Translations under genes and position numbers: made by a program
Shown: piece after piece, positions 1-25,425 of the stretch
Position numbering within the stretch: the first letter of the stretch is position 1
How the letters are laid out: the number at the start of each line of letters is the position of its first letter
The notes under the pieces: generated by a model
The model's database searches: none
Told to the model about the DNA's origin: nothing
What the model saw: the letters and a program-made list of their open reading frames with translations, nothing else
NCBI GenBank assembly: GCA_043727235.1
Contig: JAYSYX010000377.1
Coordinates: 1 to 61,337, forward strand
Direction of reading: 5' to 3'
From: Bacteroidota bacterium
GTDB lineage: Bacteria > Bacteroidota > Bacteroidia > Chitinophagales > BACL12
DNA: 61,337 nucleotides

Positions 1-937
1 GATCAAACACTTTTCCATTATCGGCAAAAAATCTTCCTAAACCATCTTCCGGAAGGTTGTAATAATCCTGAAATATGGTATCGGGTTGTGGCGGCATTAC
101 AATGCCATTATAGGGAAAGGTTCCAACAGGATCATTATAGGGAATAACGAAAGGCTCTTCATAAATATCCTCCAAATAATAAGATGGATAATATTTTTCC
201 GGAATATATCTTTGAGAATGTGGCCTGAAGAATCCCATTCCCAGAAAAAATGGTCTGCCACAAGTGTTTGCAGTGCTATCGGCATAAGCATTAATAAATG
301 CGATAGCAGTGTCGGCACCCATATAATCTTCCATTAAATACTCCATCGAATCAGGGATCATACCCCAATCAAAACCGCCTCCGAAAGCATAAGCACTGAA
401 ATCTTCAAGCAGAGAATCAGAATCTTCGAAAAACAGCATTTCGTTCCACGATAAAGTTCTTTCGCAGGGTGGAGTTCCTACAGTTTTATCGAAATCATTT
501 TCATTGGGATTGTGAAAAAGTTTATTTATTGCATAGGTAAAATATCCTGCGGAGTCTTTAAGCAATTGCGGAAAAGTAAAAACCTCTTCATTGTTATTTT
601 CCAATGTGAAATTGTCGCGGAATTTACTTTGGTAGTCTTCATTATTATATACTTGTGTATAAAAAAGATCTTTCCCACTGAAAAAACTTGTTCGGGAAGG
701 ACCGCATCCGGCAGCACTTGAATATGCATTTAGAAAAAGGGTTCCTTCTGAAGCCAGCTCTTTTACATTAGGCGTTTCAATTTGAGGTTGGTCGGTATAT
801 CCTTCAATATAATCATTCAGATCATCCACAACAATAAAAATAAAATTGGGTTGATCGGTTTGGGCATTGCAAATAGTAATTGAAAAAAGAAAAAGGGGGA
901 TAATCCAAAAATGATATTTAGATAGTTTTGTGTTCAT
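1..937 (-). CDS. Array member S0: IDS-like family-S1 sulfatase paralog, N-terminal 312 codons only (rest of gene lies beyond window start)
   Basis: Absent from the ORF track because it runs off the edge. My reverse-strand translation from ATG 937..935 stays open to position 1: MNTKLSKYHFWIIPLFLFSITICNAQTDQPNFIFIVVDDLNDY..SSAAGCGPSRTSFFSGKD..AINKLFH..FFLGMGFFRPHSQRYIPEKYY..PYNGIVMPPQPD. It is collinear with the N-termini of S4 and S7. Its start codon is 1 nt from the stop of S1. Confidence 0.85.
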   Translation of the reverse strand, partial: MNTKLSKYHFWIIPLFLFSITICNAQTDQPNFIFIVVDDLNDYIEGYTDQPQIETPNVKELASEGTLFLNAYSSAAGCGPSRTSFFSGKDLFYTQVYNNEDYQSKFRDNFTLENNNEEVFTFPQLLKDSAGYFTYAINKLFHNPNENDFDKTVGTPPCERTLSWNEMLFFEDSDSLLEDFSAYAFGGGFDWGMIPDSMEYLMEDYMGADTAIAFINAYADSTANTCGRPFFLGMGFFRPHSQRYIPEKYYPSYYLEDIYEEPFVIPYNDPVGTFPYNGIVMPPQPDTIFQDYYNLPEDGLGRFFADNGKVFD

Positions 938-938
938 T

Positions 939-3467
939 TCAACGCATGATAATTAGGGGTGATGAAATTGAATTTAACAGGCCTGTTACGCATAGGAGAT
1001 ATACACCATTTTCAAAATCTTCAACATTAAAATTGTAATAACTAGTGCCTATGTCTTGACCGAGATCAAAACGTTTAATTAGTTTACCATTCAGGTCATA
1101 CATATTTAAAACATTCCCAGATATGCCCGACTTAAGATAAATTGTAACATTATTATGTGCAGGATTTGGAATAATATATAATACTTCATCCTTAAAATAA
1201 TTAATGAGTGGTTTGTAAATGGTTTGTGTATAACTTAACACACAATCATTATTCCCATATTGGACATAACATGTGATGGTATAGGGTGCAGGTATATCAA
1301 AAGTAATTTCCTCCGGAATCTCATTATAAAATACACTGTCGCCATTTATCACCCACCAATAGAAATTATAGGAACCACTTATTTCAAAATCATTCACATA
1401 AGCTATTGAATCTGCCGAAAGAAGTTCAAATGAAAGAGTGGGTAGGTTATCTGGATTTAAAAAATAGTGCTCCATATCAAATGCACGAATAAAACCGGAA
1501 CCGGAAGTGGTATCAATTATTTGTAAATAGAATATAAGTTTTGAGTTTGTATTAAATATTGCAGTTGGAATTGAAGAGATCAGGAAGGATTCGCTTGTAG
1601 AATTAATAGTATCTGAAGTAAGATTGTTTGTCCAAATATACATTAATTCATCAGGTGGTAAAACGTAAGCTCCCAGGGTATCGAATAATTCGAACATTAG
1701 ATCTAAAGTATCAGAATAACTCAGAAAACAATCCATGGGATCTTTTTTAATAAATGCAGTGTACGTTTTTGCATTGAACATGGAACTATCAGGTAACCAT
1801 TGCTGTAAATAATCCACCACTGGTTTATAATCTGTGTTTTGTATAAGGTTATTCCATTCATTAGGGTCTATTTCTCTGTTAGCGCCGATTTCATATAATT
1901 CTTCTTCGAAATAACTATTTAGAGAATCGCAAATAGTTAATCCTCCTCCATTGGACTGGTACCTGATATAGTGAAATTGGTCGTTTCGAACAGAGTATTG
2001 AGGAAAACAAGCTCCTTCGGAATTTGATTCCTTTTTCACTCCGGATAGAATAGGTCGCTCCCAATGTTGTGTTGGTTCCTGTAAAAGAGGATAAAGTGTT
2101 TTTCCATCAAGATATTGAGAACCATCAATAAATGTCGGATAATCTGTTCCGATAAGATCACAAATAGTTGGAAAAAGATCGAGCAGACTTACCGTCGTAT
2201 TACACACTTGTTTATTAGGTTCTCTAAGATCTGAAATTATTAAAGGGACACGAATATCTGTTTCCCAAAGTGTTCGTTTACCCCAGTGTTTTTTTTCTCC
2301 CAAACCATACCCGTTATCTCCCAATAAGATTATAACTGTATTGTTATATATTTCTGGGTAAGTTTCCAGAGAATCAAGTAATCTTCCGATTTGAGCATCT
2401 AAATATTTTATTCCTGCAAGATAAGCCATTACACAATTTGCTCTTTTCGACCAGGCAAGTACATCAAGTGTAAGTGAATCGTCGAACGCAATATCAACAA
2501 GAGGTGTTGGTGAAAGATCTTCCGCCCATTCTATAAAATTATTGTCAGCACCTTTCACCATGCCTTGACCCATACTATCCAAGGGTAAATTATAATAATC
2601 AGAGAAGGGAATTTCGGGTTGCGGTGGCATAATTATTCCATTATACGGATATGAGTTTGCAGGAAAATGAAATGGTATATTAAATGGTTCCTCATAAAAA
2701 TCGGTTATATATTCCTCTTTAAAATATTTTTCCGGAATGTATAATGGTTTATGTGGTTTTTTTATTCCCAAAGCAATAAAAAATGGATCGCCACATGTAA
2801 TTGAATTATTCTGCGCGAATTGTTGAATAAAAGAAGTTGCAGAATCCACAGCAACATAATCCATCATGTGTTTTTCCATGGTATCGTTAATTGCAGACCA
2901 TTCATTATTAAATACACCTTGTTCCACTAATCCCGCGGCGATGGTAGCAGAATCGTTGTAAACAAATATTTTGTTCCATGACAATTCTTTTTCACAGGGT
3001 TCGGGTGTAATTGAATCATATTCCTGGTAATTTTCATAGCAGTGAAAAATTTTATTTAATCCGTAGGTAAAATATCCTATACTATCTTTCAGAAATCCCG
3101 GAATAGTAAAATACTCATCATTATTTCCGACTGCAGTAAAATTTTGTGCAAAATTATTGCATTTATAGCCTGCAGCGCTGTATATATTTGTGTAAGTTGG
3201 ATCTTTTCCGGTAAGAAAACTTGTCCTTGAAGGGCAACATAATGGTGCCGAACAAATTGCATTTGTAAATAGTGTTCCGTTGTCTGATATTCTGTTAATG
3301 TTTGGAGTGGCTGACTCCTGACTACCCTCCAATCCATCTATATAATCGTTGAGGTCGTCAACAACAATAAAAATTATATTGGGTTTTACGGCATCCTGAC
3401 AGAGTGCAAATAAATTTGCAAACCCCGCTATTAAGATTAGTAAGAAATGGTATGAATAATTTTTCAT
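939..3467 (-). CDS. Array member S1: secreted IDS-like sulfatase + beta module + degenerate PKD-like domain + T9SS C-terminal domain
   Basis: 842-aa ORF with ATG start and a signal peptide. Sulfatase landmarks: VDDLNDY, LCCPSRTSFLTGK, NKIFH, KKPHKP, GDNGYGLGEKKHWGK, LFPTICD, EELYEIG..DPNEWNNL. The PKD region is degenerate (WWVINGDS where paralogs have W-FGDG). C-terminal IIPNPAHNNVTIY..GVYLL resembles the Por/T9SS sorting domain. Confidence 0.9.
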   Translation of the reverse strand: MKNYSYHFLLILIAGFANLFALCQDAVKPNIIFIVVDDLNDYIDGLEGSQESATPNINRISDNGTLFTNAICSAPLCCPSRTSFLTGKDPTYTNIYSAAGYKCNNFAQNFTAVGNNDEYFTIPGFLKDSIGYFTYGLNKIFHCYENYQEYDSITPEPCEKELSWNKIFVYNDSATIAAGLVEQGVFNNEWSAINDTMEKHMMDYVAVDSATSFIQQFAQNNSITCGDPFFIALGIKKPHKPLYIPEKYFKEEYITDFYEEPFNIPFHFPANSYPYNGIIMPPQPEIPFSDYYNLPLDSMGQGMVKGADNNFIEWAEDLSPTPLVDIAFDDSLTLDVLAWSKRANCVMAYLAGIKYLDAQIGRLLDSLETYPEIYNNTVIILLGDNGYGLGEKKHWGKRTLWETDIRVPLIISDLREPNKQVCNTTVSLLDLFPTICDLIGTDYPTFIDGSQYLDGKTLYPLLQEPTQHWERPILSGVKKESNSEGACFPQYSVRNDQFHYIRYQSNGGGLTICDSLNSYFEEELYEIGANREIDPNEWNNLIQNTDYKPVVDYLQQWLPDSSMFNAKTYTAFIKKDPMDCFLSYSDTLDLMFELFDTLGAYVLPPDELMYIWTNNLTSDTINSTSESFLISSIPTAIFNTNSKLIFYLQIIDTTSGSGFIRAFDMEHYFLNPDNLPTLSFELLSADSIAYVNDFEISGSYNFYWWVINGDSVFYNEIPEEITFDIPAPYTITCYVQYGNNDCVLSYTQTIYKPLINYFKDEVLYIIPNPAHNNVTIYLKSGISGNVLNMYDLNGKLIKRFDLGQDIGTSYYNFNVEDFENGVYLLCVTGLLNSISSPLIIMR

Positions 3468-3473
3468 GTACGA

Positions 3474-5993
3474 TCAGTGGATTATGATAGGTGCCGAGCT
3501 TGTAAAAATAGGTGTTTTAAGTGTGATAAAATACATTCCCGGGCTCAATATTGTAAGATCGAGCTCATTGATAAGGAGTCCGTTCATATTAAAGTTATTT
3601 ATAAAATAAGTTCTTCCAGCAACATCTGAAATGATAATTTCCCCTTCCTCCACCAAGTCTTTGGTTGCAAGGTTAAATAAGCCATTAGAGGGGTTGGGAA
3701 AAATAAAAATATTGTTTTCATCTGCATAATTGTAGGAAAACGTTTCAATTTCTCTGCTATAGGATATAAAGCAAGTGTCGGAACTTCCAAAACTGACAAA
3801 ACTGCTTACTGTATATTTGCCGTATTCTTCATAGGTGTGTGAAACGGGTTCGGGCCCATAAAAGTAATTTCCGTCACCAAAATCCCACAATACAGAATTG
3901 TAATCCCCAAGAATTTCAATATTGGAAAAAGTGACCGTTGTTGATTGATAATCGGTATTTACTTCAAAAGAAATTTCAGGAAATTGGGCATTTGTTAAAT
4001 AAGCATAGATGAGATCAAATCCGGCTATCGTATTTGTTGATGTGTCTATCATATAGAAATAAAATATCACTCTTTTCGCAGTATTAAAAATCTGAATATC
4101 GTTGAATGTAAAATTTACTTCTGTTCCAAATATTGTATCGTCAGTAATATTATTTGTCCAATAATAAAAGTAACCTTCTGGAACAGTTGTAATAACTCCT
4201 GTAGTATCAAATATATCAAAAGACAGATTAATGGAGTCATTATAAACAAGATGGCAACTGGTTTGATCGATATTAATTTTTATATTAAAAGTTTTCTTAT
4301 TATAGAGCGGCTGTCCTGGAATCCATTGAGAAAGATATTTCACAACAGGCAGGTAATCGGAATTGCTAATCAGATTGTTCCACTCGTTGGGATCTTTTTC
4401 ACGATCAATTCCTATTTCGTATAATTCTTCTTCTACCACTGAATTGAGCGAATCGCAAGTTAGGTTTCCTTCAACATTATTCGAATGGTATTGTATATAG
4501 TGAAACCTTTCATCGCGAATGGAATATTGCTCATTGCAAGAAACTTGTTTACCATCTACTGCCATATAGGTTGTAAGAACAGGAGATTCATAATGAAGTG
4601 TACTGTCATAAAATACTGATACTAAACTTTTCCCTTCCAGGTATTTAGTGCTATCAGGAAATAGCGGATAAGGATTTAATGTCAGGTCACAAATTGTGGG
4701 AAACAAATCAAGTAAACTTACATTAATATTAGAGGTTTTTTGAACCGGATTTCTCATATCAACCATAATAAATGGGACTCTTATATCAGTTTCCCACAAT
4801 GTATTTTTTTTCCAGTGTTTTTTTTCATCTAAAGAATAACCGTGATCACTTGTAATGATTATTACCGAATTATTCAGAATTTCTGGGTACAAATTCAATT
4901 CGTTCCAAAAGCGCCCTAACTGTTCGTCAACAAATTTTACTGCCGCGAGATAGGCCATCGTTGCGTTTGCAATTTTAGATCTTGTCAGAATATTTGCAGT
5001 TTCTTCATTACTTAGTGAGTCGTTAATGGATATCAATAAACTTAAACTATCGCCCCAATTCTCAAATTCGTTGTGTACTCCCACCGACGCGAGATTTTTT
5101 CCAACAAATCCTAAACTCTCGTAATCGGAATAAGGGATCTCAGGTTGTGGTGACAATACAACACCATTATAGGGGTATGTATTGGCTGGTTCATTAAATG
5201 GAATATCAAAGGAGGGGTCTTCAAAATCGTCGATATAATAAGGGAGAAAATATTGTTCTGGAACAAATAATTCAAGATGTGGCTTATGGAATCCGAGTGC
5301 AAGAAAAATGGGCTTGTCACAATAATCGGAGGGATTTAAATCATATTCGTCTAAAAATTCCAAAGAAGCATCAGTAATATTATAATCCTGCATATCAGAT
5401 GTAAAAGATTCGTCGATCTTAGCCCAATCAAATTTGGGAACATCCTGGTCGAGTGAATCACCTTCACTAATTATTCCACCATCACTTCCTTTATATATAA
5501 CCTCATTCCATGATAATGAACGAGCACAATTGTCGTCTGTTGTTTCATCATAATCATTCAGATATTGATCTGCATGAAATATTTTATTCAAGGAAACGGT
5601 ATAATATCCTCCTTCATCTTTCAAATATTCGGGGAGGGTGGTAAAATATTTATCAGGTGGAAAATTTGATCTGAAATCCAATTCATTAAATTCTTCATTA
5701 TTATATACTCCGGTATAACCCGGATTCTTGCCTAATAAAAAACTTGTTCTGGATGCGGCACAAACCGGAGCAGAACAATAAGCATTTAAAAAAGTAGTTC
5801 CCAGCGATGCGATAGCATCCAAATTCGGAGTTTCAACCTGTGGATGTCCGCTCAAAGGTTCTATCCAATCGTTCAGGTCGTCAAAAATAATAAAAATAAT
5901 ATTTGGTTTTTCTGCGGTTTGAGCAAAATATATATGCGAGAATAATAAATTCCCTAATAATAGGAACAAAAGTGTATAAATTTGCTTTTTCAT
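3474..5993 (-). CDS. Array member S2: secreted IDS-like sulfatase + beta module + PKD + T9SS CTD (C-A-A-S-R active-site variant)
   Basis: 839-aa ORF with a signal peptide. Motifs: FDDLNDW, VCAASRTSFLLGK (Ala where Pro is usual; codons 5748..5762), NKIFH, HKPH, SDHGYSLDEKKHWKK, LWDFGDGNYF (PKD), IFPNPSNGLFNL..GMYFI (T9SS CTD). Confidence 0.9.
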   Translation of the reverse strand: MKKQIYTLLFLLLGNLLFSHIYFAQTAEKPNIIFIIFDDLNDWIEPLSGHPQVETPNLDAIASLGTTFLNAYCSAPVCAASRTSFLLGKNPGYTGVYNNEEFNELDFRSNFPPDKYFTTLPEYLKDEGGYYTVSLNKIFHADQYLNDYDETTDDNCARSLSWNEVIYKGSDGGIISEGDSLDQDVPKFDWAKIDESFTSDMQDYNITDASLEFLDEYDLNPSDYCDKPIFLALGFHKPHLELFVPEQYFLPYYIDDFEDPSFDIPFNEPANTYPYNGVVLSPQPEIPYSDYESLGFVGKNLASVGVHNEFENWGDSLSLLISINDSLSNEETANILTRSKIANATMAYLAAVKFVDEQLGRFWNELNLYPEILNNSVIIITSDHGYSLDEKKHWKKNTLWETDIRVPFIMVDMRNPVQKTSNINVSLLDLFPTICDLTLNPYPLFPDSTKYLEGKSLVSVFYDSTLHYESPVLTTYMAVDGKQVSCNEQYSIRDERFHYIQYHSNNVEGNLTCDSLNSVVEEELYEIGIDREKDPNEWNNLISNSDYLPVVKYLSQWIPGQPLYNKKTFNIKINIDQTSCHLVYNDSINLSFDIFDTTGVITTVPEGYFYYWTNNITDDTIFGTEVNFTFNDIQIFNTAKRVIFYFYMIDTSTNTIAGFDLIYAYLTNAQFPEISFEVNTDYQSTTVTFSNIEILGDYNSVLWDFGDGNYFYGPEPVSHTYEEYGKYTVSSFVSFGSSDTCFISYSREIETFSYNYADENNIFIFPNPSNGLFNLATKDLVEEGEIIISDVAGRTYFINNFNMNGLLINELDLTILSPGMYFITLKTPIFTSSAPIIIH

Positions 5994-6202
5994 TTCAAAA
6001 AAGGGTAATACAATATTTAGAAATTTGAAAATTTATTTAGTTGATTCAACAGACTCAACTATACCTTACTTCCTTTATTAAACATTCCGCGAAAAATTAT
6101 ATGGTTAATCGGGGAATGCTTTTAATAGCATTTTTACAGGTAAATTTACTTAAATTTAACATATTTATCCTGAATTTTCTGCGAATTGTATCTATTAGTA
6201 CA

Positions 6203-6228
6203 TGAAATGCCTATCTGAGTTAGTGAAG
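6203..6228. repeat. Conserved 26-nt box, copy 1 (tgaaatgcctatctgagttagtgaag), in the long S3-S2 spacer
   Basis: By eye, 22 of 26 nt are identical to 21825..21850, including the 8-nt tgaaatgc and 13-nt tgagttagtgaag blocks at the same spacing. The box occurs only in the two long spacers of the array. Confidence 0.6.
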
Positions 6229-6285
6229 CATTAATATCGGATCCCTGCAAATTGGGACGGTATTGTTCATTTATTAAAAAAAATC

Positions 6286-8793
6286 CTAATGTATTATTTC
6301 AAATGTCATAACATGGCTTGATTGTCTGGTAATAATTTGAAGATAATACTGACCATTCGGCCAAAACTCCGTAACTATTGAAAAATTGGCATTATTGAGC
6401 ATCGATTTTTTGTATAAAGTTTGGCCTTGCAAATTCAATATTCGAATTCCTTCAGGAATCTCATTTCCTGTAAAATCAACATAAATTTGTTGGTTTGCCG
6501 GGTTTGGATAGATATTACAATAATATTCGATATCCTCAAAAACTAATGCTGAAGTAGTAACCATGTGTTTCTTAAAACAGGAGTAATTGTTTCCAAAATT
6601 AACTGTGCAGTTAATTGTAAATGGTCCCGAATTTGTATAGGTATGTGGTGCAGGGAAGGGCCCGGTTGAGGAAGTACCATCTCCAAATTCCCAAAGTATC
6701 GAATTGTAATTTCCTGTAATATTAATATCTTCAAAACTCACGGTTAAACTATCTTGCAGAATAGAAAATGAAACTGTAGGTTCATTTTCTTCATTGATAT
6801 AAAATCTTTTTGTTGCCAATCCTACAACTAAATTATTCAGTGTGTCGATCATTTGTAACACAAAGAAAACATCTCCTTTCATGCTAAAAACATCATCTGA
6901 AATGAGTGAGAGCGGAAAACTTATAAAATTGCCATAAAATAGATCGTTTGTTAAATCGTTGCTCCAGGTATAAATAAAATTTTCAGGAGCCGGAATCAAA
7001 TTACCGATGGTATCATAAACATTAAAAAATAGTTGCAAGGTATCATCCTCCTCCAGCAAACACGCCAAAGTATTATTTTGAATTTCTAGGGAATATGGAA
7101 CTTCTAGATACATTCCGCTATCAGGTAACCATTGTCCTAAATAATCTTTTACAAGTTGATATGAACTATCATTTACAAGATTATTCCATTCATTTGGATC
7201 GGTTTGAAAATTTTCCCCTATTTCATATAATTCTTCTTCCTTCCATGCCAATGCTTTATTACATTCTAATATAGTATCCATATTATTGGAGGTATAATAA
7301 ATATAATGATATGCGTTATTTCGAATAGAATATTGTGGGAAACATGAACACTGGGCAGACGCCGTTAAGAGATGTGATGCGAGAGACGGTTTATCGATAT
7401 GCACCGCAGGGTTATTAAGCAGAGGCATTAGAGATTTTCCATCAAGATAGCCGGATCCATCAGCAAAAGTAGGATAGGGAATCTCGGTAAGATCACAAAT
7501 AGTTGGAAAAAGATCCAGTAAACTCACCGCTGAAAATGTTGATTGCGAGATAGGGTTGCGCATATCGGCAATAATAAAAGGCACCCGTAAATTATCCTCC
7601 CACATGGTTCCTTTATTCCAGTGTCTTTTTTCCCCTAAAGAAAATCCGTGGTCACTTACAAATATCAAGATTGAATTATTAAATATTTCAGGATAAGTCT
7701 GAAGTGAATCAATAAATCGTTTTACCTGTGCATCCACAAAGGAAATTGCTGCAAGATATCCGATAGTTGCATGTGCCTTTAATGATGTGTGCATTATTTC
7801 CAATCTTTCCTCCTCACTAAGTAATGGATCAAATTCGGGTAAGGGTGAATATCCATCAACTTCGCCATCAAAGCCATAATAATAATTTTCGAAATCGGAA
7901 AATGATTGACCAAGCGTTCCAAGTTTATTATAATCATTATAAATTGTATCCGGCTGTGGTGGCATTACTACACCGTTATAGGGTATCTGGTTTTCCGGAT
8001 TATTGTAAGGATAATTAAATGGTTCGGCATAAAAATCCGATACATAATCGGAGGTGAAATATTTTTCCGGAACATACCAGGGTAGGTGAGGTCTTCTGAG
8101 CCCTATAGTGATAAAAAGCGGGTTACCGCAAGTATTAATTGTTTCATTATGAAACTGATCAATAATAGTTAATGCGGTGTCGATTGCCCTGTGATCATAT
8201 AATTTATATTCAAGACTGTCGGCAATTCGACACCATGCTAATCCACTCATACCTTCATTATTTGCATTGCCATAACTCACAATAGAGGAATCTTCTTCTT
8301 TATTAAACCAGCTGTATTTGCTCCAGGATAATTCTTTGGCACAGGGATCTGCATGTATGGAATCAAAATCAGAATCAGTAGAGAAACAATGAAATATCTT
8401 ATTAATACCATATGTAAAATACCCATAATTTTTTAAATGTTCGGGTATTGTAAATATCTCTTCATTATTGTTGGCGGGACTAAAATAATCTCTGAAGGGT
8501 AAACAGGCAGGATTATAATAAATATCGGTGTATAAAAGATCTTTACCCGTGATCATACTTGTTCTGGATGGCGCACATTTAGGACAGGAGGTATGTGCAT
8601 TCAGAAAAGAAGTTCCCATGGAGGCTATCTCATTCATACCCGGAATAGAAACTTGAGGATGTCCATTCACATCTAGAGGGTAGTCATTCATATCATCAGT
8701 TAAAATGAGAAAAATATGGGGTTTATCTGCTACCTGACCAATTGCAATTACCCTGAATAAATAAAATAAGAAAAGGGGAATTATAAATTTCAT
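6286..8793 (-). CDS. Array member S3: secreted IDS-like sulfatase + beta module + PKD + T9SS CTD
   Basis: 835-aa ORF with a signal peptide. Motifs: TDDMNDY, PKCAPSRTSMITGK, NKIFH, RRPH, SDHGFSLGEKRHWNK, LWEFGDGTSS, IYPNPANQQIYV..GQYYL. Confidence 0.9.
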   Translation of the reverse strand: MKFIIPLFLFYLFRVIAIGQVADKPHIFLILTDDMNDYPLDVNGHPQVSIPGMNEIASMGTSFLNAHTSCPKCAPSRTSMITGKDLLYTDIYYNPACLPFRDYFSPANNNEEIFTIPEHLKNYGYFTYGINKIFHCFSTDSDFDSIHADPCAKELSWSKYSWFNKEEDSSIVSYGNANNEGMSGLAWCRIADSLEYKLYDHRAIDTALTIIDQFHNETINTCGNPLFITIGLRRPHLPWYVPEKYFTSDYVSDFYAEPFNYPYNNPENQIPYNGVVMPPQPDTIYNDYNKLGTLGQSFSDFENYYYGFDGEVDGYSPLPEFDPLLSEEERLEIMHTSLKAHATIGYLAAISFVDAQVKRFIDSLQTYPEIFNNSILIFVSDHGFSLGEKRHWNKGTMWEDNLRVPFIIADMRNPISQSTFSAVSLLDLFPTICDLTEIPYPTFADGSGYLDGKSLMPLLNNPAVHIDKPSLASHLLTASAQCSCFPQYSIRNNAYHYIYYTSNNMDTILECNKALAWKEEELYEIGENFQTDPNEWNNLVNDSSYQLVKDYLGQWLPDSGMYLEVPYSLEIQNNTLACLLEEDDTLQLFFNVYDTIGNLIPAPENFIYTWSNDLTNDLFYGNFISFPLSLISDDVFSMKGDVFFVLQMIDTLNNLVVGLATKRFYINEENEPTVSFSILQDSLTVSFEDINITGNYNSILWEFGDGTSSTGPFPAPHTYTNSGPFTINCTVNFGNNYSCFKKHMVTTSALVFEDIEYYCNIYPNPANQQIYVDFTGNEIPEGIRILNLQGQTLYKKSMLNNANFSIVTEFWPNGQYYLQIITRQSSHVMTFEIIH

Positions 8794-8841
8794 TAAATAT
8801 CAATTGTATGGGTTAATTGATAATGTGTGTTATATTGTTTT

Positions 8842-11364: not shown

Positions 11365-11408
11365 GATGGGGTATTTAGTGTTTTGATATGCATTTAGGAT
11401 GAGGCTGT

Positions 11409-13931: not shown

Positions 13932-13968
13932 ATTAAAAGTTTAACCTTTATATGCTATTTATAAAACC

Positions 13969-16488: not shown

Positions 16489-16523
16489 GTCCGTGAAATT
16501 TGAGTTTCATAGGGATTATTTCA

Positions 16524-19040
16524 TCATTTCATTATTTCAAATTTTTTATTTCCGATAAAATTACCGGCATTTATTTTAATGATATAAGTGCCGGAAGGAA
16601 GTGCTGAAATATTAATTTGAATAATTTTATTTTGTGGAGTAATAGTTTGCGTTAAAACTACCTCGCCCAATATATTTACGATCTGTAATGTTCCATCTTC
16701 TTCAACATCCATCTCAACATTTAAAATATCGTCAACCGGATTCGGATAAATATTAAAATTTAAATAAGGCAACCCTTCTCGGGTAATGGTAATATTTTTC
16801 GCCTTGCTTTTAAGACAACCGTTACCATATTCAATATAATTTCTAATTGTATATGATCCAGGTGAAGTATAAAAATGAGTATCAGGTAGAAATTCTTCTG
16901 ATATGATACCGTCGCCAAATGTCCAATACGTATTAGTATAACTTCCTATAATATTATAGGAAACTATATCAGCACTGTTCAATACAGCATCTGTTACAAC
17001 ATTAAAAGTAGAGGATGGTGTATTTGCGCTGTTTATGGAAATGGTCTTTGTATTAAACGCAACCAACTGACCAGAAGTAAGATCAGTTACCTGGAGATAA
17101 AATATTATTTTATCGTTTGCAGCAAAAACAAGTGCAGGTATGGATGCCGTATTAAAGGTATAATTGCGACCATAAAAAATAGCTGCTGTTAAATTGTTTG
17201 TCCATTTGAACTGATAATTTGATAAAGCAGCGCCGGTAATTGCAGTTCCGTTATCTGAATATAAAAAGGATGATATTTTAACGCTGGTTGCATTACTTAA
17301 AAAACAAGGCAATGTTTTTGTGGATGTTTGAACTGTATATGCTTTTTGCAGATACAATGAGCCATCGGGCATAAATTCTTCGAGGTAATCTATTATCGGG
17401 GCGTAATTTGGATCTGCTGCAAGATTATTCCATTCGTTTGGATCAATGTCGCGATCAATTCCGATTTCATATAATTCTTCCTCGTAATAGACACTGTCGT
17501 AATCACAAATTGTAATACCAAGATCACCATTATTGTTTTTTTGATAACGGATATAATGAAATCTTTCATTTCTTACAGAATAATGCGGGAAACATCCTCC
17601 TATTCCGGTAGTTCTTTTTGTTGTAGATAAGGTTGGGTTTTCAATCAATAGATCCGGGTTGTCGAGTAAAGGAACGATGCTATGCCCGTCAAGATAATCG
17701 CTGCCATCTGCAAAGGTTGGGTAAGCAACATCCGCTAAATCGCAGACAGTTGGGAAAATATCGATGAGAGATGTGGATCTTTTGCAGATCTGATTACCTG
17801 GTTTCGTGGGGTCAACAATAATAAATGGAATCCGGAGATCAGTTTCCCAAAGCGACCATTTTGTCCAGTGCCGTTTTTCCCCGAGTGAATATCCGTTATC
17901 GCTGATTAAAACAATAATAGTATTTTCAAGAATTTCAGGATATGCCTGAAGTGTATCCATTACTTTACCGATCATGGCATCTATATATTGTACAGCAGCT
18001 ACATAAGTTGCCGCCTCATTAGAAGCAGCGGTCTGCATAAGTATATCTGTTCTTTCTTCGTCGGTTAGACCGGCATCAATGACAGGCAGCGTTGGAAGGA
18101 AATCAATATATTCGAGAAGATCTTCATAACCTTGTCCGAAATCGGCTAACTTCTGTCCAACTCCCAGATCCGGTAATTGGTAATAATCGTTGTAAATAGG
18201 TTCAGGTTGGGGCGGAACCACATGACCATTATAAGGGAAGGCATTTGCCGGAGTATTATAAGGAGCCACAAAAGGTTCTTCATAAACATCACTCAGATAA
18301 TTGGGCTGATAATATTTTTGCGGAATATACCTGTCTGAATGAGGCCGGTTATATCCCAATGCTAAAAAGAAGGGTCTTTCGCATGTGTTAAAACTGCCGT
18401 TTGCATATTCATGCAAAAATTGAACTGCACTGTCGGTCATGATATAATCCTGTAATATATTTTCCAGCGAATCAGGTATCATACCCCAGTTGAAATTGCC
18501 GAAAGAATAGTTATCCAGCAGAGTTACGATGTCTAATGTTTCACTGAAATATTTCATTTTACTCCAGGATAGATCCTTTTCACAAAAATCAGGAGTTGAT
18601 TTATCGTAATCATTTGATGCTGCATTATGAAAAATCTTTTCCAGCGCGTAGGTATAATAACCACCTGAATCCTTTAATATTTCAGGCAGTGAAAAAACTT
18701 CTTCATTGCCTTTTACTGCAGTAAAGTTGCTCCTGAATTTACCTACATAATCTTCGTTATTGAACACTTTGGTATAGGCAACGTCTTTACCCGACAAAAA
18801 ACTTGTTCGTGATGGTGCGCAACCCGGCGAATTGCTATAAGCATTCAGAAAGGTTGTTCCGCTGGCTGCAAGTGCACTAATATTTGGCGTTTCAACCTGC
18901 GGCTGCCCATCAAAACCTTCTACATAATCGTTGAGATCGTCAATCACAATAAAAATAAAATTGGGTTTTACGGGAACAACTTGTGCCGAAAGTTGTAAAA
19001 TAGAAAAAATAAAAAGGAGAAAAGTAATTCGTATTTTCAT
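16524..19040 (-). CDS. Array member S7: secreted IDS-like sulfatase + beta module + PKD + T9SS CTD
   Basis: 838-aa ORF with a signal peptide. Motifs: IDDLNDY, GCAPSRTSFLSGK, EKIFH, NRPH, SDNGYSLGEKRHWTK, NYQFKWTNNLT..FYLQVTDLTSG, YWTFGDGIISEEFLPDTH, IYPNPVDDILNV..GTYII. Confidence 0.9.
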   Translation of the reverse strand: MKIRITFLLFIFSILQLSAQVVPVKPNFIFIVIDDLNDYVEGFDGQPQVETPNISALAASGTTFLNAYSNSPGCAPSRTSFLSGKDVAYTKVFNNEDYVGKFRSNFTAVKGNEEVFSLPEILKDSGGYYTYALEKIFHNAASNDYDKSTPDFCEKDLSWSKMKYFSETLDIVTLLDNYSFGNFNWGMIPDSLENILQDYIMTDSAVQFLHEYANGSFNTCERPFFLALGYNRPHSDRYIPQKYYQPNYLSDVYEEPFVAPYNTPANAFPYNGHVVPPQPEPIYNDYYQLPDLGVGQKLADFGQGYEDLLEYIDFLPTLPVIDAGLTDEERTDILMQTAASNEAATYVAAVQYIDAMIGKVMDTLQAYPEILENTIIVLISDNGYSLGEKRHWTKWSLWETDLRIPFIIVDPTKPGNQICKRSTSLIDIFPTVCDLADVAYPTFADGSDYLDGHSIVPLLDNPDLLIENPTLSTTKRTTGIGGCFPHYSVRNERFHYIRYQKNNNGDLGITICDYDSVYYEEELYEIGIDRDIDPNEWNNLAADPNYAPIIDYLEEFMPDGSLYLQKAYTVQTSTKTLPCFLSNATSVKISSFLYSDNGTAITGAALSNYQFKWTNNLTAAIFYGRNYTFNTASIPALVFAANDKIIFYLQVTDLTSGQLVAFNTKTISINSANTPSSTFNVVTDAVLNSADIVSYNIIGSYTNTYWTFGDGIISEEFLPDTHFYTSPGSYTIRNYIEYGNGCLKSKAKNITITREGLPYLNFNIYPNPVDDILNVEMDVEEDGTLQIVNILGEVVLTQTITPQNKIIQINISALPSGTYIIKINAGNFIGNKKFEIMK

Positions 19041-19062
19041 CTGATTTTTTTAAAAGTAGGCT

Positions 19063-21570
19063 TCAAATAATTTCAATTATTTTGCTGGTAGAAGTGGTTT
19101 CTGAATTCAATTTCAGAATATAACTTCCTGCGGGTATTTTTTCAATGTCCAAATATATCAAATTTCCGGCAGGAAAAGTATTTGAACTGAATATTGTTTG
19201 ACCCAGCATGTTAATTATTTGAATTTGAGCCTGATCCGCTGACCTTTCCAATGCTATATTTACCCTTTCTGATGCGGGATTTGGAAATATCTCAAATCCA
19301 TCAGCTGTCTTGGCTTCTCTCAGAATTTCAATGTTTCTATCCACCTGCATTTCACAGCTATTTCCATATTCTATATAATTAGTTATGGTATAAGTGCCCG
19401 GAACGGAATAGAAATGTGTGGCAGGCCATAACTCCTCTGAGTTTATGCCATCACCAAACTCCCAATAACTGTCACTATAAGTTCCATTGATCACATAATC
19501 AATAATGTCTACACTGTTTTGCAGATCATTTGAATAAAGTTCAAAGCTAACTTCTGGTGTATTCAGACTATTTATATGAACTATTTTATTATTAAATCCC
19601 ATCAAAGCTCCTGTTGCCGTTTCGGTTACTTCTAAATTAAACAAAATTTCACTGTTGAGTTCAAATACTTCCGGTAAAATGGAGGCCATGTTAAAAATAT
19701 AGGTTTTACCAAAATATATATCATTGGTTATACTATTGGTCCATTTAAAAGTATAAGAATTGAGTGCTGCACCGGCCAATAAAATTCCCTGTTCATTATA
19801 AATGATGGGTATTAATTTTAAATTTCCGTTATTGGGTAAATAACATGGCAGAGTTTGATGATGAATTTTTACCGTAAAAGCAGATTGTAAATATTTTGAA
19901 CTATCAGGGAGCCATTGCTGTAAATAATGAAGAACGGATTTATAATCGTCGTTGTTTATTAAATTATTCCACTCATTAGGATCTCCCTCACGATTTCTAC
20001 CGATCTTATACAGTTCTTCTTCAGTAGTGGAGAGTTCCAGGTTGCAATCATCACCCACACCGTCATTATTTGATCTATATCTGATATAATGAAATCTACT
20101 ATTTCGCACGGAATATTGTGGGAAACAGGATGATTCCTCGGCACTTTCATGTTTATAACTGCTCAACACCGGCCTTTCAATATTGAGTTCCGGCTGTATT
20201 AAAAAAGGTGTTAGTGAATTTCCATCTAAATAATTTTCACCATCAGGAAAAACGGGCGCAGTAATTTCGGCAAAATCGCAAATTGTTGGAAACAGATCTA
20301 ATAAACTAACTGCGCTGTTGCAAACTTGCGATTGCATATTTCGATTATCAGTAATTATTAATGGTACTCGCAGGTCTGTTTCCCAAAGTGCTCTTTTTGC
20401 CCAATGTTTTTTTTCACCTAAAGAATATCCGTGGTCGCTGCTAATTATTATAACGGTATTATAATAAAGCGCAGGATTTTCTTTTAATTTTTCCAAAATT
20501 CGGCCTACCTGTGCATCAATAAAATGAATGGATGCAATGTATGCCATTACAGCATTAGCACGTTTTGATTCCCCAAGAATTATTAATCTTTCCTCATCAG
20601 AAAGTCCTTCTTCTATAATTGGTAAAGGGTCTATTGATTCGCAGTGGCCTAAAAAACCATTGTGTATATACGGACTTGCAGAACTTTGACCTAATACGCC
20701 TAAATTTTCATAGTCGTTCCAGGGAATTTCTGGTTGTGGTGGCATTACAATTCCATTATAAGGAAAAGCATTTACCGGATGGTTATAGGGTTTAATAAAG
20801 GGTTCCTCATAAATATCATCCTGATAATATTCCGGGTAATAATTTTCTGTAACATACATTGGCAAATGGGGAAGGTGATATCCCAAAGAAATATATAAAG
20901 GGCGGTTGCAAAATAAATCAGGATGGGTTATATAATCATCAATTGTTTGCAATACACTTTCCGTTGCCATATAATCTTCTAAAGAACCTTCAAAGCTGCT
21001 ATCCAATTTCGACCATTTAAACTGATTAATATCTTCATCCGTTGCTTCTGCCGCTGCATGTACTCCTGGGCCTTGGTGTGGAGTAATAAATTTATTCCAT
21101 GATTTTGTTTTAGAACAAACATCCATTGTTAAAGTATCAAATTCGTTGGAGGATACATCACAATGAAATATTTTACCAAATCCCGCGGTAAAATATCCTG
21201 CGCTGTCCTTTAGATATTGGGGTAAGGTAATAATATAATTTCCCGGAGTAAAACTTGCTCTGTAATCATTGCAATCTAAATCCTGATTATTTAAGATACC
21301 CGTATACGCTGGATCTTTTCCCGTAAAAATACTTGCACGTGATGCAGCACAGACAGGTGATGTGGCAAAGGCATTTAAAAAAACTGTACCGCTGTCAGCA
21401 ATACTTTTTAGGTTAGGAGTTTTTACTTGCGGATGTCCGTAATAGGGTTCAACATAATCATTGAGATCGTCGATCACTATATAAATAATATTTGGTTTGG
21501 TGATCTCAACCTGAGCTTGCAAATTTATTACTGCACATAGCAGAGCTGAAAATAAAAATGTGGTTTTCAT
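19063..21570 (-). CDS. Array member S8: secreted IDS-like sulfatase + beta module + PKD + T9SS CTD (C-A-A-S-R active-site variant)
   Basis: 835-aa ORF with a signal peptide. Motifs: IDDLNDY, VCAASRASIFTGK (codons 21337..21351), GKIFH, HLPH, SDHGYSLGEKKHWAK, YTFKWTNSIT..LEVTETATG, YWEFGDGINSEELWPATH, IFPNPASERVNI..GSYIL. Confidence 0.9.
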   Translation of the reverse strand: MKTTFLFSALLCAVINLQAQVEITKPNIIYIVIDDLNDYVEPYYGHPQVKTPNLKSIADSGTVFLNAFATSPVCAASRASIFTGKDPAYTGILNNQDLDCNDYRASFTPGNYIITLPQYLKDSAGYFTAGFGKIFHCDVSSNEFDTLTMDVCSKTKSWNKFITPHQGPGVHAAAEATDEDINQFKWSKLDSSFEGSLEDYMATESVLQTIDDYITHPDLFCNRPLYISLGYHLPHLPMYVTENYYPEYYQDDIYEEPFIKPYNHPVNAFPYNGIVMPPQPEIPWNDYENLGVLGQSSASPYIHNGFLGHCESIDPLPIIEEGLSDEERLIILGESKRANAVMAYIASIHFIDAQVGRILEKLKENPALYYNTVIIISSDHGYSLGEKKHWAKRALWETDLRVPLIITDNRNMQSQVCNSAVSLLDLFPTICDFAEITAPVFPDGENYLDGNSLTPFLIQPELNIERPVLSSYKHESAEESSCFPQYSVRNSRFHYIRYRSNNDGVGDDCNLELSTTEEELYKIGRNREGDPNEWNNLINNDDYKSVLHYLQQWLPDSSKYLQSAFTVKIHHQTLPCYLPNNGNLKLIPIIYNEQGILLAGAALNSYTFKWTNSITNDIYFGKTYIFNMASILPEVFELNSEILFNLEVTETATGALMGFNNKIVHINSLNTPEVSFELYSNDLQNSVDIIDYVINGTYSDSYWEFGDGINSEELWPATHFYSVPGTYTITNYIEYGNSCEMQVDRNIEILREAKTADGFEIFPNPASERVNIALERSADQAQIQIINMLGQTIFSSNTFPAGNLIYLDIEKIPAGSYILKLNSETTSTSKIIEII

Positions 21571-21824
21571 TGTGTGTGTGTTTGAGTGAATGTTTTATAA
21601 GTTGTGGTGCTAATAAAATAAATTGTCGCTCTTTGTTTAAGTTAATTAATTGGGTCGGAGATAAATATATGGGGTTCGCATTCTTGGGACGGACAAAGAA
21701 CGAAAGGATTGAGATCAGATGGAATATCAATTTCGGATAATGGAACATAACATTGTATCAACTAAAATTACCATAAAGCCTCAAGCAAACAAGTTGAATT
21801 TAGCGAAGTGACCTAATTTAAATG

Positions 21825-21850
21825 TGAAATGCAGGTTTGAGTTAGTGAAG
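21825..21850. repeat. Conserved 26-nt box, copy 2 (tgaaatgcaggtttgagttagtgaag), in the long S9-S8 spacer
   Basis: See copy 1. This copy lies between the S9 terminator hairpin and the S8 start. Confidence 0.6.
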
Positions 21851-21925
21851 TGTATTTATAACTCAATTTTATGGTATGGGATTGCAACCTTGGCGCTAAA
21901 GATCTCAGGGAATAAACGAATATAT

Positions 21926-21960
21926 TAAGGATATCAGACCATTATTGGCTGATATCCTTA
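21926..21960 (-). terminator. Stem-loop directly after the S9 stop; probable intrinsic terminator
   Basis: Perfect 12-bp inverted repeat taaggatatcag (21926..21937) / ctgatatcctta (21949..21960) with an 11-nt loop, starting 12 nt after the stop at 21972. On the minus strand it is followed by the moderately T-rich atatattcgtttatt. Confidence 0.6.
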
Positions 21961-21971
21961 ATACAGAAAAA

Positions 21972-24500
21972 TTATCTTACGATTTCGAATTTAGAGGTTG
22001 TGAATACTTCTTCTGATCTTAATTCAAGAATGTAAGATCCGGAAGGGATATTTTGTATGTCGATTTGTATTGATTTGTTCTGAGAATTTTTTGTGGTAAT
22101 ATAAACAACTTGTCCCAAAGTATTTAATATGAGTATTCGTGCATCCTTAATTTCATTTTGCAGGGTAATATTCAATTGAGTACTTGCGGGATTCGGATAT
22201 AATGCACATTCAAATTCAGTTAATCCATCACGCAATAAAGTTGCGCTGCGATTATAACTTTTTAAACAACCATTTCCATATTGAATATAATTAGTTACAG
22301 TGTAAACTCCCGGTGCTGTATAAAAATGTGTGTCGGGCAAATAATCTTCCGATGTACTACCGTCACCAAAATTCCAATAAGTATTGGTATAACTCCCTGA
22401 TAATGAATAAGTATTTATAGTGGTAGATAATGCAGGGATATCATTTGTAAGTGTAAAACCACCGATTGGAGTATTTGCATTATTAACAAAGTATGTTTTG
22501 GTATTAAAAGCCACAAGTTCACCGGTAGCGGTTTCCGTAACTTCGAGATAAAATAATATTCTGTCGGCACTCGAATAAACCGCAGGTGTAACTGTCAACA
22601 TATTAAAATTATAATTTTTACCGGTAAATACTGCTGCCGTTAAATTGTTTGTCCATTTAAAAGTATATCCTGCACCTGTTAATGGGGCGCCTTCAGGATC
22701 AAATAATGTTGCCTGTAATTTTATTTTGCTGTTATTTTTTAAAAAACATGGGACAGTACCTGCATTTGATATGTTTACTATGTGTGCTTTTTGAAGATAT
22801 AATGCACTGTCAGGTAAAAACTGATGCATATAATTTACCACAGGTGCATAGGCAGGATCATTTATTAAATTATTCCATTCATATGGATCTGTTTCGCGAT
22901 TAACTCCCATATCATATAATTCTTCCTCGCTAAAACTTGCTGTCTCATCGCACGTTAAAAGTGGCGGAGTATTATTGGTCTGATATTTAATATATTTAAA
23001 TCTGTTATTGCGTATACTGTATTGCGGAAAACAAGAAGCTTCATTTATCATACCCATCGGATTTTTTGTTTTAACGGTGGAGAGAGATGGTTTTTCCCAC
23101 ATTAATTCAGGGTTGTTCATTAAAGGTAAAAAACTATGTCCATCAAGATATCTTCCACCAGCTGCAAATGTTGGTTCAGGAATATCAATAAGGTCTAAAA
23201 TTGTTGGGAAAATATCGAGAGTGCTTACACTTTTACCACAGGTTTGAGCAACAGGATTACGCATATCAGTAAAAACCAACGGGACTCTAACATCAGGTTC
23301 CCACATGGAAAATTTACCCCAGTGTCTTTTAGTTCCAAGAGAAAAACCATGATCAGAAGTTAGAATAATTACACAATTATTATAAATTTCAGGATGTGCT
23401 TGCAGCGCAGTTAAAAATCTTCCTAATTCATAATCCAAAAAATTAATACCCGCTTTGTATGCTAAAATGGCATTGGCCCTTTCTGTTTCATTTATTATTT
23501 CAATTCTTTCTGCATCACTTATACCAGCTTCAATTTCCGGCAGGGTAATTAAACTTTCACCATAATCATCAAAGAGCTGAGCTTCATTGTCGGAAGCAAA
23601 TAACTGTCCCATGTATCCCAGTGAATCGTAATCCGCCCAGCGTGGGTCCGGTTGAGGCGGCATAACAAGTCCGTTATATGGAAAAGCATTATAAGGTTCA
23701 TTATATGGTTTGTTAAAGGGTTCAGCATAAATATCTTCTACATAATCATCATCGAAAAAACTCTCAGGAACATAAAAATTTGCATGCGGTTTTTTAATTC
23801 CTAATCCGAGGAAAAAGGGATTTCCGCAAGTAACAGATGGCCCGAATTCTGCGAAATCATCAATAAATTCTATAGCTGCATCTACGCTCACATCATCTTC
23901 CATATAATCAATTAAAGTATCGTCGAGACGCGCCCATTTTAAGGTAAAAATCCCTTCATTTTCCGCATCACCTATCGGATTGATGATATCATCTTCCACA
24001 TAAACAAAAGCATTATTCCACGATAATTCTTTTAAACATGGATCGGGTGTTTCGGCATCATAATCAGAAAATGCTTCATAACAATGAAATACTTTTCCAA
24101 TTGAGTAAGTATAATAATCTGCATTATCTTTTAAATATCCGGGCAAGGTGTATACTTCACCATTTCCATCTGCCACCTGAAAATTTTTTCTGAAATTATA
24201 ACATGCATAACTTGTATTGTCATATACCTGAGTGTATAAAACGTCTTTTCCGGTAACAAGCGAAGTTCTTGCCGGAGCACATTTTGGTGAAGCACAATTT
24301 GCATTTGTAAAAACAGTTCCATTTTGAACCAATGTATTTAAATTTGGTGTTGAAGCCTGAGGAAAATATTCGTAACCTTCCATCATGGTATTCATATCAT
24401 CCATAGTAATTAAAATGATATATGGTTGCGTAGGAGCCTGTGCCAATGAAAGCAAGGTAAAAAGGGAAAAGAAAATGGAGAAAGTTAAATATTTTATCAT
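21972..24500 (-). CDS. Array member S9 (first transcribed): secreted IDS-like sulfatase + beta module + PKD + T9SS CTD
   Basis: The track ORF is 21972..24530, but its first codon is TTG. I prefer the ATG at 24500 (MIKYLTFSIFFSLFTLLSLAQA, a signal peptide). Motifs: MDDMNTM, PKCAPARTSLVTGK, GKVFH, KKPH, SDHGFSLGTKRHWGK, YTFKWTNNLT..LEVTETATG, YWNFGDGSTSEDYLPDTH, LYPNPASTQLNI..GSYIL. Confidence 0.9.
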   Translation of the reverse strand: MIKYLTFSIFFSLFTLLSLAQAPTQPYIILITMDDMNTMMEGYEYFPQASTPNLNTLVQNGTVFTNANCASPKCAPARTSLVTGKDVLYTQVYDNTSYACYNFRKNFQVADGNGEVYTLPGYLKDNADYYTYSIGKVFHCYEAFSDYDAETPDPCLKELSWNNAFVYVEDDIINPIGDAENEGIFTLKWARLDDTLIDYMEDDVSVDAAIEFIDDFAEFGPSVTCGNPFFLGLGIKKPHANFYVPESFFDDDYVEDIYAEPFNKPYNEPYNAFPYNGLVMPPQPDPRWADYDSLGYMGQLFASDNEAQLFDDYGESLITLPEIEAGISDAERIEIINETERANAILAYKAGINFLDYELGRFLTALQAHPEIYNNCVIILTSDHGFSLGTKRHWGKFSMWEPDVRVPLVFTDMRNPVAQTCGKSVSTLDIFPTILDLIDIPEPTFAAGGRYLDGHSFLPLMNNPELMWEKPSLSTVKTKNPMGMINEASCFPQYSIRNNRFKYIKYQTNNTPPLLTCDETASFSEEELYDMGVNRETDPYEWNNLINDPAYAPVVNYMHQFLPDSALYLQKAHIVNISNAGTVPCFLKNNSKIKLQATLFDPEGAPLTGAGYTFKWTNNLTAAVFTGKNYNFNMLTVTPAVYSSADRILFYLEVTETATGELVAFNTKTYFVNNANTPIGGFTLTNDIPALSTTINTYSLSGSYTNTYWNFGDGSTSEDYLPDTHFYTAPGVYTVTNYIQYGNGCLKSYNRSATLLRDGLTEFECALYPNPASTQLNITLQNEIKDARILILNTLGQVVYITTKNSQNKSIQIDIQNIPSGSYILELRSEEVFTTSKFEIVR

Positions 24501-24576
24501 TTGTGTGTTATTTGGTGGCGAATATAACAACTCCTTTCTAATTTTACAATTATTAATCAGTTAAAAACATATTTAA

Positions 24577-25372: not shown

Positions 25373-25425
25373 GAAGGAAGGAAGGGGTTGGAAGGGAAAA
25401 AAATGAAGGAATGAAACAATGAACA

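Follow-up and report, generated by a model that had tools for sequence, protein, structure and literature searches.

How do neighboring copies of a secreted enzyme come to combine catalytic domains of one ancestry with C-terminal tails of another? The question is raised by a contig of 61,337 nucleotides from an uncultured Bacteroidota bacterium of the Chitinophagales (assembly GCA_043727235.1, contig JAYSYX010000377.1; this whole stretch is called the window below), in which ten sulfatase paralogs, S0 to S9, occupy positions 2-24530, all in the same orientation on the minus strand. S1 to S9 are complete open reading frames (ORFs) of 835-852 residues, S0 is partial. Heads and tails of these proteins give different trees, and unequal crossing-over together with patchy gene conversion among the tandem paralogs is, in our judgment, probably the best explanation. 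An earlier, sequence-only reading of the array had proposed recent conversion on top of a duplicated four-gene block; it was right in kind, i.e. about module exchange, and wrong about recency, about the class of S3 and S9 and about which tails are derived.

For comparison, 69 loci were obtained in a scan that covered each species by one genome; they are labeled L001, L002 and so on, and the close ones all stem from metagenome-assembled genomes (MAGs) of uncultured Chitinophagales/Bacteroidota. ORF calling and a hidden Markov model of the family yielded 74 full-length homologs from these loci, many of which contain tandem sulfatase arrays themselves (seven genes in L001; five each in L002, L012 and L019; four each in L004, L008 and L029). 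Trees of 83 sequences were built by neighbor joining on Kimura distances with 300 bootstraps, separately for the catalytic part (S6 residues 25-560) and the tail (residues 590-839).

Discordant heads and tails in ten tandem sulfatases

Each complete gene encodes a hydrophobic N-terminus (by inspection) and a Sulfatase domain with an SGSH_C-like subdomain reaching to about residue 558 (Pfam), followed by a stretch of about 110 residues lacking Pfam annotation, a PKD domain and a type IX secretion system (T9SS) sorting domain, Por_Secre_tail. Matches are strong at both ends: Sulfatase (PF00884) scores 110-150 bits in all nine complete genes (gathering cut-off 25), and Por_Secre_tail (PF18962), at the extreme C-terminus, 30.6-55.8 bits, again in nine of nine (cut-off 27). 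The genes are as follows.

2-937, minus strand: S0, a 312-residue 5′ fragment of the last array gene, catalytic class D0, running off the left window end
939-3467, minus strand: S1, class A1 sulfatase with native class-A1 tail (942-1817), by Pfam, trees and BLAST ranking
3474-5993, minus strand: S2, class B2 sulfatase with C-A-A-S-R motif and native B2 tail (3477-4343), by Pfam, trees and BLAST ranking
6286-8793, minus strand: S3, class C3 sulfatase with K-C-A-P-S-R motif; tail (6289-7149) with weak relatives only
8842-11364, minus strand: S4, chimeric: catalytic domain of class D, tail (8845-9714) of S9 type
11409-13931, minus strand: S5, chimeric: catalytic domain of class A, tail (11412-12281) of S9/D type; breakpoint zone about 12210-12251
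13969-16488, minus strand: S6, chimeric: catalytic domain of class A (sister to the S1 class), tail (13972-14841) of S9/D type; breakpoint zone 14770-14844
16524-19040, minus strand: S7, chimeric: catalytic domain of class D, tail (16527-17393) of S9 type
19063-21570, minus strand: S8, chimera of a B-like N-terminal catalytic half (C-A-A-S-R) and an S9-type tail (19066-19932); breakpoint about 19909-19914
21972-24530, minus strand: S9, first array gene, class E9; tail 21975-22838

S0 lies outside the range 939-24500 to which the sequence-only reading was assigned; its ortholog, at 90% identity, is L001_18082, with which the array of that MAG ends. The S9 ORF as listed begins at a TTG (24530); an ATG at 24500 (MIKYLTF...), in line with where the other paralogs start, is the likelier start codon.

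All motifs by which the heads had been sorted by eye into groups D, A, B and C are present in the alignment, and two of the four groups stand as drawn. In group D, S0, S4 and S7 are 57-65% identical over the catalytic region (regional identity matrices); S4 and S7 join L008_4832 at 98% bootstrap in the catalytic tree with outgroups, and S0 falls into the related class D0, which is widespread and has its own tail type. In group A, S1 and S6 are 61-64% identical with S5 as a looser relative (47-62%), and the class comprising S1, S5, S6, their orthologs and seven genes from other MAGs reaches 99% bootstrap. Group B is a mixed case: by window identities S2 and S8 cannot be separated from the rest (52% vs 46-55% to other genes), yet with outgroups added they do form a class, at 90% for the whole catalytic domain and 78% for its N-terminal half, residues 330-548 giving no resolution. 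Group C dissolves. S3 and S9 share 41% catalytic identity, no more than either has with other paralogs, and each sits in its own class at 100% bootstrap, S3 with L012_12463, L022_55 and L014_5569 (100%) rather than with S9; the PKCAP motif that had united them is an active-site signature common to two separate classes.

The tails sort along different lines. Over the last 280 alignment columns, S4-S7 are mutually 56-60% identical and 40-49% identical to S8 and S9, and the tails of S1-S3 show 23-30% identity to all others. S4-S7 and their orthologs constitute a clade with 92% bootstrap in the tails and 0% in the catalytic domains; conversely, class A goes from 99% in the catalytic tree to 0% in the tail tree and class B from 90% to 0%, which is the incongruence that separate trees had been expected to reveal. 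The S4-S7 tail group is thereby real, but the near-identity ascribed to it is confined to short motifs. Likewise, the tails of S1-S3 differ from those of S4-S7 as claimed, but they are not one module (26-30% identity among themselves), the S3 tail finding best BLAST matches of only about 35% identity; and a separate S8-S9 tail variant is not supported, as these two are 44% identical vs 49% for S9 and S7.

The transition between the two signals is sharp. In windows of 60 residues, the identity of S1 and S6 drops from 60-73% to 11-43% near alignment column 575, and across the same stretch the pairs S4/S5, S4/S6, S5/S7 and S6/S7 climb from about 45% to about 70%. Maximum chi-squared analysis places the change of signal where the sulfatase domain ends, at S6 residues 549-573, in S5, S6, S8 and their orthologs, with values of 56-101 for S5 and S6 (0 of 2000 permutations) and 16-18 for S8 (1-4 of 2000); the S6 value of 101, at residues 549/550, was reached by none of 2000 permutations. 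Ranking by BLAST, which is alignment-free, returns the same nearest neighbors as the trees. The discordance between head and tail is far beyond chance. Chimerism of the assembly was considered as a source and rejected: the paralogs have at most about 65% nucleotide identity, and the same chimeras are found in three independent assemblies.

Source, direction and age of the exchange

Which of the tails moved can be read from their closest relatives. The tails of S1 and S2 group with those of their catalytic orthologs in other genomes (L001, L003, L004, L012). For S1, catalytic domain and tail both group with L001_15522, L003_4457 and L004_5592, and the tail is not fast-evolving (nonsynonymous divergence, dN, between ortholog tails of 0.12 vs 0.15-0.21 for S4 and S7). 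By these groupings, the S1 and S2 tails are native to classes A1 and B2 and not unusually diverged.

The five genes S4-S8 behave differently. In sliding windows, S4 and S7 follow D0, S5 and S6 follow A1 and, across the N-terminal half alone, S8 follows B2; at about residues 544-577, the S9 class takes over in all five. For the tail as a whole, the closest sequences in 94-100% of bootstraps are S9-class tails of the same lineage, at distances of 0.88-0.94, whereas S9-class tails from other MAGs lie at 1.01-1.14 and class-native tails at 1.67-2.16. S9 itself, the most conserved gene of the array (orthologs 90-94% identical), is a member of class E9 (100% support), and its tail falls with those of other E9 genes in both the neighbor-joining tree and the BLAST ranking. 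The proximity of the S4-S8 tails to own-lineage S9 tails indicates that five downstream genes, drawn from three catalytic classes, carry the tail type of the first gene. We infer that S9 represents the source type; the donor belonged to the lineage of the window after its split from the L006-L009 lineages.

As to age, recent conversion had been predicted to leave a drop in synonymous divergence (dS) in the 3′ third of S4-S7. There is none: dS exceeds 1.5, i.e. is saturated, in both partitions for every paralog pair, and it amounts to about 1 or more between orthologs, some pairs being saturated as well. Saturation makes this test uninformative, and the same holds for whole-region dS, third-position identity and 30-codon windows over the 3′ gene part, where dS is saturated even between orthologs. 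Other observations are more telling. A search for recent conversion tracts found exact matches between paralogs of at most 28 nt, and each of the S4-S8 chimeras has a 1:1 ortholog, likewise chimeric, in L001 or L002. Because of the saturated dS, the short shared runs and the chimeric orthologs in these two MAGs, we conclude that the main exchanges are old rather than recent. Tails evolve about twice as fast as catalytic domains.

The later events that we detected are of sub-domain size only. One is the pairing of the S5 and S6 tails at 85% bootstrap, compared with 4% for S6 and L002_9989 and 0% for S5 and L001_9971; the tails of S1, S2, S4, S7, S8 and S9 pair with their own orthologs at 87-100%. 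Another is L001_9971 itself, a mosaic of an S5-like head (71%), a PKD domain 83-84% identical to S7 orthologs and a C-terminal domain (CTD) 65% identical to the S4 ortholog. The third is a second breakpoint in S4 at the PKD/CTD boundary (S6-numbered residues 732/743), where site counts change from 24:9 to 4:22 (p ~0.0005); the S4 CTD thus has a history separate from its Ig-like and PKD domains.

Unequal crossing-over as the probable mechanism, and competing explanations

What kind of recombination would produce such an array? We propose a very old tandem array of variable gene content, encoding T9SS-secreted S1-family sulfatases at a conserved Chitinophagales site (holB-psp1-gldH-xth / array / porP/sprF), in which homologous recombination between misaligned tandem paralogs would repeatedly have joined D, A and B heads to the S9-class tail. 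S8 would have formed first and the S4-S7 set later, with native tails kept by S9, S2, S1, probably S3 and presumably S0. The events would have been mainly unequal crossovers, which create and delete genes and leave a chimera at the junction, accompanied by smaller gene-conversion patches at sub-domain boundaries. The main events would date to an ancestor that this organism shares with two related MAGs, with a few sub-domain exchanges afterwards. Crossovers would have fallen within or just after the last strongly conserved catalytic block:

14842-14931, minus strand: coding block EEE(L/F)YEIG.NRE.DPNEWNNL..., S6 residues 520-549, directly 5′ of the breakpoints

This EEELYEIG..DPNEWNNL block is a candidate crossover site: residues 520-534 are jointly the most nucleotide-conserved among the paralogs (mean pairwise identity 0.74; 0.65 for residues 535-549), and S6 and S7 share an exact match of 24 nt at residues 533-540.

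Gene content differs among the three closest arrays, the order being 9-8-7-6-5-4-3-2-1-0 in the window (10 genes), 9-8-7-5*-2-1-0 in L001 (7 genes) and 9-8-7-6-4 in L002, where the contig ends and the MAG assembly is without S5. Gene 5* is L001_9971, and its S4-type CTD in an array devoid of S4 is what a deletion by unequal crossover would leave behind; the gene fits a deletion-junction chimera. A crossover that duplicates, in turn, is expected to yield a hybrid whose 5′ part comes from the downstream gene and whose 3′ part comes from the upstream one. S8, S7, S6 and S5 match this orientation, because their head classes survive downstream (in S2, S0 and S1) and the tail donors lie upstream, and so do L008 and L019. 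That tails follow physical neighborhood through exchange among tandem neighbors, as the sequence-only reading had it, extends to the arrays of other MAGs. There are at least three independent cases of tail sharing there (L019_3752/6409, L014_2925/5569 and L008), and the ratio of tail distance to catalytic distance is lower for adjacent paralogs than for pairs drawn from different genomes (Mann–Whitney U test, p=3.7e-6, window excluded).

Block duplication may have contributed as well. B2-A1-D0 is a conserved 3′ array end in the window, L001 and L004 (A1-D0 in L003), so that duplication of a three-gene B-A-D block is possible; the order B8-D7-A6-A5-D4 needs further events beyond it. We consider it very unlikely, by contrast, that a four-gene D-A-B-C block was duplicated, extra copies were added later and recent conversion homogenized the S4-S7 tails. 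The order D-A-B is indeed found twice in coordinate order, B2-A1-D0 is conserved across MAGs, and S8 and S2 have a 26-nt motif upstream in common. Yet the C position of the block fails, S3 and S9 belonging to different classes, and the tails to be homogenized are just 56-60% identical, show no dS drop or long identical tract and are already joined to their heads in the L001/L002 orthologs. Moreover, class A5 (S5) is old, being present in L009, L014 and L018, and although S1/S6, S2/S8 and S0/S4 are same-class pairs, each split predates the divergence of several MAG lineages.

A further distinction is that between crossover and conversion. If 3′ segments had been copied between neighbors on a fixed array, no unequal crossovers would be needed, and the sub-domain mosaics, namely the S7-like PKD of L001_9971 and the S4 PKD/CTD breakpoint, do look like conversion patches. 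A donor lies downstream in L014_2925, and the S5 and S6 tails pair within the genome when those of their orthologs do not. Such a fixed array is at odds with gene content that varies among the three closest relatives, with the S5 head and S4-type CTD joined in the S4-less L001 array as a deletion junction would join them, and with donors that lie upstream and parent head classes downstream, consistently in the window, L008 and L019. We therefore regard pure conversion as unlikely, and crossover as the mode that would account for the main events.

Recombination as such could be questioned, given that tails evolve about twice as fast as catalytic domains and neighbor-joining trees are sensitive to rates: the pattern might be an artifact of unequal rates or long-branch attraction, or of convergent selection on tails with a common secretion partner. 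It is extremely improbable that this suffices, as the S1 and S2 tails lie with their orthologs' tails at ordinary distances, that of S1 not being accelerated, several genes break sharply at the same residues, BLAST ranking concurs, and a similarity over about 200 residues and two domains is too extensive for convergence. Import of whole genes or tails by horizontal transfer or allelic replacement is very unlikely, too. L025, from the same MAG as L002, has a quite different 3′ array half next to a porP/sprF gene 97% identical to that of L001, suggesting that cassette replacement can occur; in 94-100% of bootstraps, however, the S4-S8 tails lie nearer to the own-lineage S9 tail than to S9-class tails from other MAGs, and the donor type therefore sits in the same array. 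We would take the tail exchange to have been functionally neutral. That the spread of the tail was selected—the locus serving as a T9SS cargo cassette in which differing heads are mounted on a common Ig-PKD-CTD stalk that matches a locus adaptor or co-anchors the enzymes—is an idea suggested by the position of the array between gldH and a very conserved PorP/SprF-family gene, and one to which we give only a small chance.

Several points weigh against unequal crossing-over as set out here, or limit how firmly it can be drawn. The trees are neighbor-joining trees on Kimura distances rather than maximum-likelihood trees with topology tests, and their deep nodes are weak, the tail super-clade that holds S4-S9 having 62% bootstrap. 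MAG contigs are fragmentary, meaning that some gene absences could be assembly gaps. Owing to dS saturation, there is no direct dating of the events and no conversion tract is visible at the nucleotide level. Four further blocks (residues 25-39, 272-284, 389-403 and 486-500) are as nucleotide-conserved as the proposed crossover block, so the placement of the breakpoints may reflect selection for intact domains rather than a hotspot. L014_2925 breaks the orientation rule in that its PKD and CTD resemble the downstream neighbor, which points to gene conversion or a deletion junction. Finally, the pairs in the adjacency test are not independent, and the short intergenic spacers show no mutual similarity and no trace of duplication.

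The sulfatase locus, its products and their biology

Nine residues (C74, R78, D34, D35, K136, H139, H238, D383 and K391 in S6 numbering) are invariant in the nine complete genes; their roles (metal and catalytic: DD pair, D(H/N), K/H) are assigned as in solved sulfatases. The formylglycine motifs (C/S-x-P/A-x-R) read CCPSR, CGPSR, CAPSR, CAASR and CAPAR. Because this motif and the metal and catalytic residues are invariant, all nine complete sulfatases are probably active. The nearest solved structure, human iduronate-2-sulfatase (5FQL, E=2e-26), has in common with them the Sulfatase and SGSH_C domains, the C-x-(P/A)-x-R motif and the invariant catalytic residues; it is a distant relative, to which the array proteins add the extension of Ig-like domain, PKD and T9SS CTD. 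The residue preceding the formylglycine cysteine (S6 residues 72-78; window about 16255-16275) is class-specific and conserved across MAGs, with L-C in A, V-C in B, K-C in C3 and E9 and G-C in D, and S2 and S8 carry C-A-A-S-R with alanine replacing proline. Both features hint at anSME-type maturation and class-specific substrates. No FGE or anSME maturation enzyme is encoded within the 61-kb window. The catalytic head classes (residues ~25-550) probably differ in substrate.

An AlphaFold2 model of the S6 tail shows three successive beta-sandwich domains, the terminal one included (pLDDT 82), and a Foldseek search with this model for a specific binding function returned only generic multi-Ig/FN3 matches, for which reason a role of the Ig-like domain as a carbohydrate-binding module was not adopted. 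Together, the Ig-like domain, PKD and type-A T9SS CTD read as a generic stalk plus sorting signal. Tails of other lengths occur in the same sulfatase family: short forms of about 680 residues have a CTD only (L037 5503-7527) or no recognized tail domain (L039 9896-11953), and long forms of about 1100 residues with PKD, FN3 and CTD are among L045 9644-13150 and L047 1907-5281. As both short (head plus CTD) and long forms exist, tail architecture appears to be modular across the family.

The site of the array is conserved. Its head is flanked by holB-psp1-gldH-xth (window 24577-29332; more than 12 Chitinophagales loci), and in related MAGs it is followed by a gene for a PorP/SprF-family T9SS membrane protein, directly after the last D0-class sulfatase where that is present (12 loci):

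L001 20775-21815: PorP/SprF gene, with matching positions in L003, L004, L006, L007, L009, L012, L014, L018, L022, L025 and L026

This gene is 79-97% identical across most MAGs, compared with about 55-70% for the sulfatases; distant copies in L029, L034, L044 and L052 are 56-63% identical. In the window, it would fall just past the left end. L007, L009, L029 and L034 have a sulfatase gene between gldH and xth, a slot taken by an ankyrin-repeat gene (25594-26127) in the window. In L025, positions 1-9959 hold a 3′ array half with genes of other classes, its D0 gene being 61% identical to S0, next to the PorP/SprF gene that matches that of L001; either array segments turn over fast or the cassette was replaced between conserved flanks.

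Within the array, the two long intergenic gaps contain the following elements.

21825-21850, minus strand: 26-nt motif CTTCACTAACTCA(A/G)A..GCATTTCA, upstream of S8 and, conserved, of its orthologs in L001 and L002
6203-6228, minus strand: the same 26-nt motif, CTTCACTAACTCA..GCATTTCA, upstream of S2; also upstream of the L001 S2 ortholog (L001 ~12815)
21923-21963, minus strand: inverted repeat of 41 nt directly following the S9 stop codon, with arms of about 15 bp by eye; a self-match of the gap on the opposite strand

The 26-nt motif, which has two matches in the window vs none in 100 shuffles, holds two TTCAC elements about 21 nt apart and is probably a common regulator or promoter site. 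As it stands upstream of S8 and of S2, in both long gaps, the array may be transcribed as three units (S9, S8-S3 and S2-S0), and the inverted repeat looks like a terminator. A blastx search of the long gaps found no gene remnants, and a scan for sigma-70 promoters and terminators, unsuited to Bacteroidota promoters, gave counts at background.

The rest of the window is ordinary chromosome, with xth, gldH, psp1, holB, a Bat operon, rpoN and an aminoacyl-tRNA synthetase gene. A low-GC stretch at 52000-56524 (0.29 vs ~0.35), in which two ORFs lacking Pfam matches (52611-53588 and 53697-54488) are followed by a HipA-family toxin kinase gene (55220-56524), may be a small acquired island. An unrelated T9SS cargo gene with lysyl-oxidase-like, Ig_7 and Por_Secre_tail domains lies at 46818-48887 on the minus strand.

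A search of a literature library found no published description of this particular array. The process, on the other hand, is well known and textbook material that would not surprise a specialist, of which the array is a clear but ordinary example. Region-restricted interlocus gene conversion or unequal crossing-over in tandem paralogs has been described, for instance, for mammalian TLR1/TLR6 (PMC2077338), where gene parts likewise give different trees, one part being common to neighbors and the other diverging. Here, however, a whole multi-domain export tail is exchanged with breakpoints at domain boundaries, and the old events (dS saturated) have been passed down to the orthologs of related species, with no ongoing homogenization. 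Closer in terms of organism and secretion route are the gingipains of Porphyromonas gingivalis, Bacteroidota T9SS cargo with domain rearrangements in the Kgp/RgpA/HagA adhesin domains (Dashper et al. 2017, PMC5266723). In both systems, catalytic and C-terminal variants combine in mosaics unrelated by phylogeny; gingipain variation is found between strains, at dispersed loci and in adhesin domains, whereas the sulfatases are ten tandem paralogs in one array and the swapped part includes the sorting domain. Chimeric genes from deletion between paralogs have also arisen in E. coli evolution experiments (Maddamsetti & Orman 2026, PMC13626634), in which recombination between direct-repeat paralogs removes the intervening DNA and leaves a hybrid. 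L001_9971 resembles such a junction, although those events were followed in real time on near-identical substrates and ours are deduced from ancient, diverged sequences.

The array thereby offers a clean and statistically solid case of how a tandem enzyme family diversifies in Bacteroidota, its heads being kept as cross-species classes and domain boundaries being the points at which the module for secretion and stalk is exchanged. A practical consequence is that whole-protein trees of multi-domain T9SS cargo can mislead and that orthology should be called per domain. For the organisms themselves, uncultured Chitinophagales of which several come from wastewater and activated-sludge metagenomes, the analysis points to a sulfatase locus that is conserved and can expand. 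These bacteria probably desulfate several different sulfated polymers extracellularly.

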